From the sequence record PP925837.1: a DNA stretch of 48,223 nucleotides. One strand, written 5' to 3'. The notes beneath the pieces were generated by a model. That model saw nothing but the letters and a program-made list of their open reading frames with translations, did not search any database and had not been told where the DNA came from. Positions 45,974 to 48,223 of this stretch are shown here, piece after piece. This stretch comes from Escherichia phage Turner. Within the stretch, counting starts at the first letter, position 1; each line of letters begins with the position of its first letter. The position numbers were made by a program, and so were the translations under genes.

Positions 45974-46671
45974 ACCCTTGCTCCTTTCAGCCCAAACTTA
46001 GCTTTGATTTCTGCGATCTTCGCCAGAGCCTGTGCACGATTTAGAGGTCTACCGCCCATGACAGGAAGTTGTTTTACTGGTTCAGGTATAGCCTCACCAC
46101 GGTTAATTCGTGCGGTCATACAGGACAGTTCATCGGCAGCCTTGCGCCGTAATTCCGCGTCAGTCAACGCATTGGCCCGCATGTTCTGATACAGGTTGGT
46201 AACCAGCCAGTAGTGCGCGTTTGATTTCCACGGATAAGACTCTGCATCCGGATACAGCCCGCGCTTCCGGCAATACTCGTAAACCATATCAACCAGCTCG
46301 CTGGCGTTTGGCAGCCCGGCGGTAACGGATGCTTCTTCCCGGCACCAGGCGACAAACTGCCCGGGTGATGGCAGGAATGGTCGATTCTGCCGACGGGCTA
46401 CGCGCATTCCAGCGTTAACCTGTTCCATTGTGGTGATCCCGTTTTCCCGAAAAGCCAGCACCCACTGGCGGCGGATTTCGTTCAGTTCATTCTGGTCACG
46501 GTTAGCCAGGCTCGCCGGGAAAGTTGCCAGTAACTGGCTGAACACACCGTTGATGATCTGCGCTACCTGCTGTACCTGCGGCTTTTCGTCGTACTGTTCC
46601 GGCATGTTGTTGGCGATCCGACGCATCTGCTCACGGTCAAAGTTAACCATCTGTGCGGCGATGTTTTTCAT
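45970..46671 (-). CDS. P: replication protein P (DnaB helicase loader)
   Basis: 233 aa, lambda P-like throughout. Confidence 0.95.
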   Translation of the reverse strand: MKNIAAQMVNFDREQMRRIANNMPEQYDEKPQVQQVAQIINGVFSQLLATFPASLANRDQNELNEIRRQWVLAFRENGITTMEQVNAGMRVARRQNRPFLPSPGQFVAWCREEASVTAGLPNASELVDMVYEYCRKRGLYPDAESYPWKSNAHYWLVTNLYQNMRANALTDAELRRKAADELSCMTARINRGEAIPEPVKQLPVMGGRPLNRAQALAKIAEIKAKFGLKGARV

Positions 46672-47597
46672 AAATCCACCCCGTAAATCCAGTCAGTGTT
46701 TGTCAGGTCGAGTTTTGGTTTGCTGGCTATCATGCCTGCCTGTTGCTTGTTACGGTTGATTTCGAGTTGGGTCCACTTGTCGCGGAGTTTGGCCGGACTT
46801 AGCACGTTACCGGACCAGAAGTTGTCCTGGCATGCCCAGCGGAAAAGCACGCACATGTCGCGGTGGTTACGTCCGTCACGTTCACGCATCAGGCGGATAT
46901 CGTTAGCCCACCCTGCAAAATTCGGTTTTCTGGCTGATGGTGCGATGGTCTTCACCATGTCAAACATCCACTCTGCGGCGGTCAGGTCTTCTGCTGTCCC
47001 CCACTTGCTGCCGCTCTGAATTGCAGCATCTGGTTTCACCACAGGAAGATCGTTTTCTGGTTGGTCAGAGGATTCGCCAGAATTCTCGGACGAAAAAGGT
47101 TTTATATTGTCTTTTGTTAGTTTGTCTTTTGTGTTTACCTGATTCGGGTAAACGCCTTTACCTGATTTGGGTAAACTTTTCTTACCTGATTCAGGTAAAT
47201 TTACCTCTTTCAGGTAAACTTTATTTTTCTTACCTGATTCGGGTAATGTTGACCATTCACTGACCACATTATTAATACCGATATTCCGCCCGCTCTGAAT
47301 CAAAATCCCACGCTTTACCAGAACACTTTTTGCAGCAGAACACTTGTGCGGTAATATCCCGGTCAATCCGGACAGTTGCTCGTTGCTCACCCAATCCAGT
47401 TTTTTATTAAAGCCATATGTTTTGCGCATGACAGCCAGGAAGACCAGAAGCTGGTGCTGTGTTAATCCGGCCAGCATCACAGCTTCCAGCAACTCATTTG
47501 CAATGCGCGTATAACCATCATCGAGATCTGCCACGCGCGGCTCCTTTTGTGCCGCATCCGGCACTGGAAAATTGAATATCTCAGCAGTGTTTGCCAT
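46668..47597 (-). CDS. O: replication initiator O: lambda-like C-terminal domain, divergent N-terminal origin-binding domain
   Basis: C-terminal half matches recalled lambda O; N-terminal domain and iteron-encoded repeats differ; ATG 47597 (GGGAGGA RBS) preferred; the ORF could instead start at 47687 overlapping the upstream stop. Confidence 0.9.
   Translation of the reverse strand: MANTAEIFNFPVPDAAQKEPRVADLDDGYTRIANELLEAVMLAGLTQHQLLVFLAVMRKTYGFNKKLDWVSNEQLSGLTGILPHKCSAAKSVLVKRGILIQSGRNIGINNVVSEWSTLPESGKKNKVYLKEVNLPESGKKSLPKSGKGVYPNQVNTKDKLTKDNIKPFSSENSGESSDQPENDLPVVKPDAAIQSGSKWGTAEDLTAAEWMFDMVKTIAPSARKPNFAGWANDIRLMRERDGRNHRDMCVLFRWACQDNFWSGNVLSPAKLRDKWTQLEINRNKQQAGMIASKPKLDLTNTDWIYGVDL
47134..47248. 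repeat. replication origin iterons inside O: five copies of about 19-20 bp (consensus TTACCTGATTCGGGTAAAC) with adjacent AT-rich tract at 47100-47133
   Basis: Copies at 47134, 47157, 47181, 47200 and 47229; each internally palindromic (ttacc...ggtaa); differ from the lambda iteron sequence. Confidence 0.75.
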
Positions 47598-47683
47598 AAT
47601 TCCTCCCGCAATGAGTGTGTTACGATTTGCACCTGAAAGTCGGTTCTGTTCCAGCAGACCGGCTTTCGCCATTTCTGAACCTG

Positions 47684-48223
47684 TCATATCGCCCCCAGCA
47701 TGGTAGTAACCATCGCCATCAATGGACCAGCCAGATCTGGGTCCACACGAAACATCGATACAATACCTTCACTAATTTCCTTCAGTTTCTGGTGGCGTGG
47801 TGCGTTGAGAATGACAGCCTGTTTTGCCTCACTGAGTTCCTTTTCCATTTCAGCCAACCTGGCCATGAAGCTATCCTGCTCAACCAGGTAACCGCGATAT
47901 TCCAGCGGTAGTACCGCCAGAATTGCCGGGGTCAGTTCACGCACGTTATTTCGGTATTTTTCAGAATCGAATTTGTTATCGAGGAAGCGGAACAGCTTCT
48001 GGCGTGCACGGCTGACATCATCAGGGAAATCGATGGTGCCGCCGCCCTGCTCCCGATACTCATTCACAATGAGTGTGGCAACGACATCCTGATTATCTAC
48101 AGCCGACCAGGCGCGGACGGCATCACGGATTTTTTCGTGGCCTGGCACCTGTTTTGTTTGAGAACGATTTATCACCGCAGTCGGGCTAAATCCGCTAGTC
48201 TGTTGGTATGGAAGTGGTTGCAT
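47684..48223 (-). CDS. cII-position protein, YdaT-like (family recalled from memory); start codon is the last three bases of the window
   Basis: 179-aa ORF directly downstream of the cro-like gene across the window junction; reverse complement of window 1-13 supplies AAGGAG 6 nt upstream of this ATG. Confidence 0.7.
   Translation of the reverse strand: MQPLPYQQTSGFSPTAVINRSQTKQVPGHEKIRDAVRAWSAVDNQDVVATLIVNEYREQGGGTIDFPDDVSRARQKLFRFLDNKFDSEKYRNNVRELTPAILAVLPLEYRGYLVEQDSFMARLAEMEKELSEAKQAVILNAPRHQKLKEISEGIVSMFRVDPDLAGPLMAMVTTMLGAI

Follow-up and report, generated by a model that had tools for sequence, protein, structure and literature searches.

In bacteriophage lambda, the replication origin lies inside the gene for its initiator, O, as inverted-repeat iterons at intervals of about 20, 24 and 23 bp, with an AT-rich tract after the last of them. 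In lambda O, DNA binding belongs to the N-terminal region and P binding to the C-terminal region, and a flexible linker connects the two (PMC6022878, section 3.2), and origin binding resides in the N-terminal 162 residues (PMC2629481, citing Wickner and Zahn, 1986). Both this two-domain design and the occurrence of differing specificities among lambdoid phages are established (PMC6022878; PMC2629481; PMC8022706; PMC7466680). We analysed the corresponding module of Escherichia phage Turner in a stretch of 48 223 nucleotides (sequence record PP925837.1; hereafter the window), which is a whole 48-kb lambdoid phage genome, circularly permuted and in reverse orientation. The module is very probably a natural recombinant that works as lambda's does, with an origin specificity unlike that of lambda (Table 1). 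It is an ordinary and very common case of the textbook mosaic, the modular design of O having been known since 1978. A sequence-only reading of this DNA had called the protein a `hybrid' initiator; the mosaic structure stands, but the implied novelty does not, since this is a common natural mosaic of the kind described in the 1970s and `hybrid' applies only if lambda is taken, arbitrarily, as the reference.

The window shares with lambda an origin inside the initiator gene, a near-identical O C-terminus and P, and a ren gene downstream. Numbered from the probable start codon at 47597, residues 1–116 of O are 47% identical to lambda O and the iteron-coded linker (residues 117–166) is 32% identical; the C-terminal 143 residues (167–309) are 96.5% identical, and P is 98% identical to lambda P. 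The lambda-like block detected by blastn corresponds to lambda 39119–40555 and begins at the first base past the last iteron; lambda iteron 4 ends at 39118. Before the block, across the N-domain and iteron region, nucleotide identity to lambda in 30-nucleotide bins is 0.3–0.8, and it steps abruptly from ∼55% to 97% at the last iteron, which argues for exchange and not gradual drift. The lambda iteron TCCCTCAAAACGAGGGA was not found in the window, and with an N-domain of 47% identity this origin falls outside the rep-lambda specificity group (lambda, 434 and 21). The expectation that the O N-terminus and iterons would differ from lambda, while the O C-terminal half and P would be lambda-like, is thus borne out, and the alignment is not that of lambda with a few substitutions.

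Five 17-bp palindromic iterons with the consensus TTACCYRAAWCAGGTAA lie inside the O gene at 47135–47246. Each is an inverted repeat, TTACC-N7-GGTAA, where the lambda iteron is TCCCTC-N5-GAGGGA, and the five are direct repeats of each other, with start-to-start spacings of 23, 24, 19 and 29 bp in plus-strand order. In gene order, intervals of 19, 24 and 23 bp separate the starts of the core four, and the fifth (iteron 1′) is an additional upstream copy; it is held in a 30-nucleotide segment that lambda does not have, an insertion that accounts for the five iterons of the window against the four of lambda. A search of all 48 kb with TTACCCGAATCAGGTAA, allowing up to three mismatches, gave 8 strand-hits where 0.12 were expected. 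All of them fall on the five sites, and none of 100 shuffles scored as high. The array abuts a tract of 25% G+C, and the G+C content is ∼0.32 in 60-nucleotide windows across 47080–47159; this tract is partly conserved with lambda and all of the relatives described below. Within the open reading frame (ORF) the iterons encode the repeated LPESGKK / LPKSGK / YPNQV peptide of O. The earlier description of five palindromic iterons in O next to an AT-rich tract, encoding an LPESGKK-type segment, therefore agrees with what we find, and the 19-mer consensus given with it is a fair plus-strand reading of these sites. An Rfam scan of 46500–48223 produced only sub-threshold chance matches to the palindromic iterons.

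The same N-domain and iterons occur on other backgrounds. Four Klebsiella phages (ST11-VIM1phi8.2, GZ7, 6 LV-2017 and KO-TP1) and enterobacterial prophages share the N-domain, recognition helix, iterons and spacing with the window, but most of their C-terminal domains show no relationship to that of lambda O. The Klebsiella phages match the O N-terminal half and iterons at ∼80–85% nucleotide identity over window 47600–47105 only. In ST11-VIM1phi8.2, all five iterons recur with unchanged spacing and are followed by an unrelated O C-terminus (17% identity) and then by a DnaC/IstB-like AAA+ protein. The window thus has two separate homology relationships, to lambda and to the Klebsiella phages, and these overlap only at 47105–47134, in the AT-rich tract. 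Because this segment is common to both, the recombination joint is likely to lie within it, in the conserved AT-rich tract.

Scanning a single genome per species yielded 24 loci, in which iterons were located by a motif-free repeat finder. The iteron class of the window (window class, TTACCYRAAWCRGGTAA) was found in Enterobacter, Klebsiella, Pseudocitrobacter, Kluyvera, Xenorhabdus, Pantoea and Providencia, with N-domains 68–83% identical to that of the window. A P22 class (TTTACCGAATCGGTAAA; P22, Pectobacterium and Serratia) has N-domains about 55–58% identical, and an HK97/mEp213 class (TTAGC-N7-GCTAA; mEp213 and related loci) has N-domains about 45% identical. The core spacing of 19 or 20, 24 and 23 bp and the AT-rich junction are the same in all classes except that of phi80. 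Window-class loci contain from four to nine iterons; the nine are in a Kluyvera sichuanensis prophage (L013, 2852–3060), where they form repeats of a 48-bp (29 + 19) unit. The window-class N-domain is found with several partners. A lambda-type C-terminus with P is found in this window, with a distant version only in the Pantoea loci; DnaC/IstB-like loaders accompany the N-domain in the Klebsiella phage and six scanned loci, and a Toprim/AAA_25 protein does so in Providencia. The same N-domain and iterons therefore stand on various C-termini and partners, and this shuffling gives direct comparative support to the proposal, made from the window's letters alone, of a swapped origin specificity on a conserved P-interaction domain. 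The locus is a clean example in which the origin-reading half of the initiator is inherited with its iterons and the loader-recruiting half with its loader.

When the N-domains are sorted by iteron class, the class signature is held in residues 81–97, which read ILPHKCSAAKS.LVKRG in the window class, MAPTKCSTAKNELIRMG in the P22 class, IHHTHVC.AKNEMIAMN in the TTAGC class and LPVKRCNEAKLELVRMN in lambda. The segment does not vary within the window class, save for a proline-to-serine change at the first helix residue in two loci, and it is different in every other iteron class, so that helix and iterons co-vary. An AlphaFold2 model of residues 1–120 has a predicted local distance difference test score (pLDDT) of 76, and of above 89 across most of residues 41–110; it contains helices at 47–60, 72–79 and 83–95, followed by a β-hairpin at 99–108. 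The large protein search behind the model was used solely for the structure-prediction alignment and returned mostly partial proteins. The Foldseek matches of the model in the PDB are weak, but all are winged-helix regulators. The N-domain is predicted to be a winged helix, with the co-varying segment as its recognition helix.

Two of the scanned loci, L019 (2501–3622, 373 residues) and L021 (2501–3604, 367 residues), carry an additional T5orf172 domain, placed after the winged helix and before the iterons. Over the first 77 residues they are near-identical to the window class, yet their helix and iterons (TTTCnnCCGTnnnGGAA) are different, a pattern that suggests recombination inside the DNA-binding domain. 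Overall N-domain identity was also considered as a predictor of iteron class and was ruled out by these two loci, which are 69–75% identical over residues 1–115 and have other iterons. Across the aligned proteins, the helix segment is the better predictor of iteron class than overall N-domain identity. The comparative series thus names a specific nine-residue helix as the probable specificity determinant, a candidate that comes from comparison of protein and iteron sequences.

The classical phages taken into the comparison were lambda, phi80, 21, 434, P22 and HK97-type phages. Phages 21 and 434 carry annotated `ori lambda' iterons, paired with the lambda-type C-terminus and P. Phi80 is laid out as the window is, and its gp15 encodes a similar iteron-coded peptide (FPKTGKSFPKSG); it differs in having four iterons (TTCCCGAAAACGGGAA) at 21-bp spacing, in a gp15 that is 39–50% identical to the window O throughout, C-terminus included, and in its P analogue. 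P22 gp18 has a homologous N-domain (58% identity) and its iterons share the TTACC pentamer, but the half-sites are two bases closer than in the window class. The N-domain of the HK97-type phages (mEp213 and ST104) is also homologous (44% identity), with different iterons, as given for their class above. Both P22 and the HK97-type phages have four iterons at 20, 24 and 23 bp and the same AT-rich junction, but their partner is a DnaB-type helicase instead of P. As a separate observation, the window-class and P22 iterons (L008, 1802–1886) have the same TTACC/GGTAA pentamers with spacers of 7 and 5 bases, and both are centred on GAATC. The likeliest classical counterpart of the window is phage 82, whose O works with lambda P and whose origin, sequenced around 1979–81, has non-lambda repeats. 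Literature text gave ori82, rep82 and lambda-82 in reference-list titles only, and for this picture of phage 82 the support is a 1978 title by Furth and Yates that PMC6022878 lists.

The full O gene is 97.0–98.4% identical in 14 isolated phages, obtained as plaque formers or by induction, in which it is annotated as replication protein O. These phages include 4A7 (Bievrevirus), Lambda_4C10, Perceval, 1W, 3W and IdasGreatGrand, as well as PhiR5_1, PhiR26_1, PhiR30_1, PhiR34_1, PhiR47_2, PhiR68_2 and PhiR70_1. Of 5426 complete Escherichia coli genomes, 2242 (41%) contain the gene, counted where one place covers at least 80% of it; IAI1 is among those with a 100% identical copy. In the 14 phages and the E. 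coli prophages the iteron region is 98.6–99.5% identical and the gene order is the same (cII-like gene, O, P, ren, SMR gene, recombinase); they show essentially no difference from the window. No origin or iteron feature is annotated in the feature tables of 4A7 and IAI1, or among the feature names under the other matches, where the gene is called O or `replication protein'. The records of 4A7 and IAI1 therefore lack an origin for an allele that is very common, and the gene start that they give is probably 30 codons too far upstream. A literature search did not find the iteron sequence, a weak negative as older subscription papers were not covered. We consider it possible, although somewhat doubtful, that the TTACC-N7-GGTAA / PHKCSAAKS class has never been characterized experimentally despite being among the commonest O/ori types of E. 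coli prophages. If so, it would form with the P22 class a natural series for how a winged-helix initiator shifts half-site spacing and specificity.

By homology with lambda, O and P would be expressed from the early rightward transcript. Dimers of the winged-helix N-domain would bind the inverted-repeat iterons inside the O gene, the recognition helix PHKCSAAKS reading the TTACC/GGTAA half-sites seven bases apart, and the resulting O-some would stress the adjoining 25% G+C tract and bring about its unwinding. The lambda-identical C-terminal domain would then recruit P and, through P, the host DnaB, so that the chain from O through P to DnaB would be that of lambda. For lambda-dv-type vectors and for replication-dependent prophage induction, lambda O would be expected not to serve the origin of the window. 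Several points weigh against this account. Binding, unwinding and P recruitment are all taken over from homologous systems, with half-site conservation and helix–iteron co-variation as indirect evidence for iteron binding by the cognate O; a PDB sequence search with O found no O protein structure; and the Foldseek matches to winged helices are weak (E values of at least 7e-3). The array departs from the plain four-iteron pattern in its extra upstream copy and its degenerate iteron at 47201–47217. Given L019 and L021, the specificity argument has to be carried by the recognition-helix segment by itself, and the P22 class, which shares TTACC at a two-base-shorter spacer, may allow some cross-recognition.

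The repeats could alternatively be a coding feature only, specifying a flexible LPESGKK linker, with the origin elsewhere. They are in frame and encode a low-complexity linker, and the peptide tolerates change, since complementation in trans is still possible with lambda O alleles that have lost part of the origin region by in-frame deletion (PMC6022878). What makes this explanation very unlikely is the conservation of the DNA. The TTACC and GGTAA columns are invariant over 12 window-class loci whose N-domains are 68–83% identical, whereas the inter-iteron spacers and their codons vary; at third codon positions, identity among four gap-free relatives is 1.00 in the half-sites (all 14 positions) against 0.63 in the N-domain. 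Half-site conservation thus exceeds the coding need, and the DNA sequence itself is under selection. Moreover, all of the repeats are inverted repeats, a property not called for by a repetitive peptide; the spacing matches that of the mapped O-binding sites of lambda, and a conserved AT-rich tract directly adjoins the array. For the iterons of Stx phages, the experiment of changing half-sites synonymously has already been done (PMC7466680).

Lambda-like anatomy might also mean that the origin and O N-terminus are simply diverged lambda of unchanged specificity, with lambda O still usable. The identical architecture and spacing and the homologous N-domains would fit such descent; the half-sites, however, are wholly different (TCCCTC against TTACC) with spacers of 5 and 7, most recognition-helix positions are different (VKRCNEAKLELVR in lambda against PHKCSAAKSVLVK here) and the identity to lambda changes in one step at the last iteron instead of drifting, all of which renders it highly improbable. 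It is equally hard to see in the module the remains of a degenerate prophage, or a chimera created by assembly, with no working replicon. The SMR and recombinase genes of the window do resemble the DLP12 region, and the DLP12 prophage of E. coli K-12 is presumably a related element that lost O. Here, however, O, P and ren are intact and translationally coupled, the window is a whole lambdoid genome, and the same arrangement recurs in the 14 plaque-forming or induced phages and 2242 complete genomes. Because the allele is so distributed, we regard the module as functional and a remnant or chimera as most improbable. A functional module of natural recombinant origin, with its own origin specificity, is the reading that we retain, and the positions of its parts are collected in Table 1.

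Table 1. Positions of the replication-module features in the window.
Feature	Position	Strand	Size, basis or remark
Upstream gene	47684–48223	−	179 aa, YdaT_toxin fold; Pfam E = 8.5e-30
Longest O-like ORF	46668–47687	−	339 aa; also the RefSeq/GenBank annotation of identical genes
Probable true O coding sequence	46668–47597	−	309 aa, N-terminus MANTAEIFNF
O N-terminal origin-binding domain, predicted winged helix	47250–47597	−	aa 1–116; Pfam and AlphaFold2 model
Predicted recognition helix PHKCSAAKSVLVK	47313–47351	−	aa 83–95; alignment and AlphaFold2
Iteron 1′ TTACCCGAATCAGGTAA, first in gene order	47230–47246	−	extra copy, 29 bp upstream of the core four
Iteron 1 TTACCTGAAAGAGGTAA, most degenerate copy	47201–47217	−	3 mismatches
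Iteron 2 TTACCTGAATCAGGTAA	47182–47198	−	perfect 8-1-8 palindrome
Iteron 3 TTACCCAAATCAGGTAA	47158–47174	−	repeat search
Iteron 4 TTACCCGAATCAGGTAA	47135–47151	−	last before the AT-rich tract
AT-rich tract, presumed DNA-unwinding element	47095–47134	−	25% G+C over 40 nucleotides past the last iteron
O C-terminal part	46668–47099	−	aa 167–309; P-binding domain by homology
Lambda-like block (AT-rich tract, O C-terminus, P and nearly all of ren)	45698–47134	−	blastn, 94.9% nucleotide identity
P, helicase loader	45970–46671	−	233 aa; Pfam Phage_lambda_P E = 8e-62
ren-like gene	45671–45973	−	downstream of P
Candidate oop-like antisense RNA	47572–47668	+	promoter-like site and hairpin, between the cII-like gene and O

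The minus strand of the window carries four consecutive genes in the order YdaT-fold gene, O-like ORF, P and ren-like gene, and the start of P overlaps the stop codon of O (ATGA). The P-binding role assigned to the C-terminal part of O comes from the literature reviewed in PMC6022878. The longest O-like ORF, which the sequence-only reading had taken as the O gene, exists and matches Pfam PF04492 Phage_rep_O over the full profile (1–95) with 115 bits (cut-off 28.7, E = 2.4e-33), at residues 51–145 of the 339-residue reading. Its start at ATG 47687, which overlaps the stop codon of the upstream gene, is less probable than ATG 47597. The latter is favored because it follows a GGGAGGA Shine–Dalgarno sequence at a distance of 4 nucleotides, because the starts of lambda O and phi80 gp15 align with it (the alignment with lambda O begins at residue 31 of the 339-residue reading) and because relatives with other upstream genes, as well as ST11-VIM1phi8.2, start O at its equivalent. 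The first 30 annotated codons (47598–47687) are therefore probably untranslated; by our own arithmetic, 30 open codons would be found upstream by chance in about one case in four.

The gene at the cII position encodes a YdaT-fold protein and not lambda cII, which it does not resemble in size. It is 66% identical to a phi80 protein annotated as cII and is labeled cII in related phage records and `toxin YdaT domain-containing protein' by PGAP. Between this gene and O, in the 87 nucleotides that precede the probable O start, the plus strand contains a promoter-like site at 47572–47600 (TTGAAT-17-CATAAT, with TG before the −10 hexamer) and a stable 15-bp hairpin at 47634–47668 (z = −3.0 against shuffles) with a poor U-tract. 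A terminator scan at this place found no canonical terminator and the Rfam scan of 46500–48223 gave no match to the oop family; in phi80, the oop-like M3 RNA is annotated at the equivalent place. The oop-like RNA remains a candidate and is not part of the origin itself.

Phage PhiR34_1 covers 94% of window 23300–48223 at 97% identity. In the nin region, the minus strand encodes an SMR-type (emrE/qacE-like) membrane protein at 45271–45657 and a 508-residue serine recombinase at 43488–45014. This arrangement of SMR gene and serine recombinase is shared by phage 4A7 and, we assume, by the DLP12 prophage of E. coli K-12.

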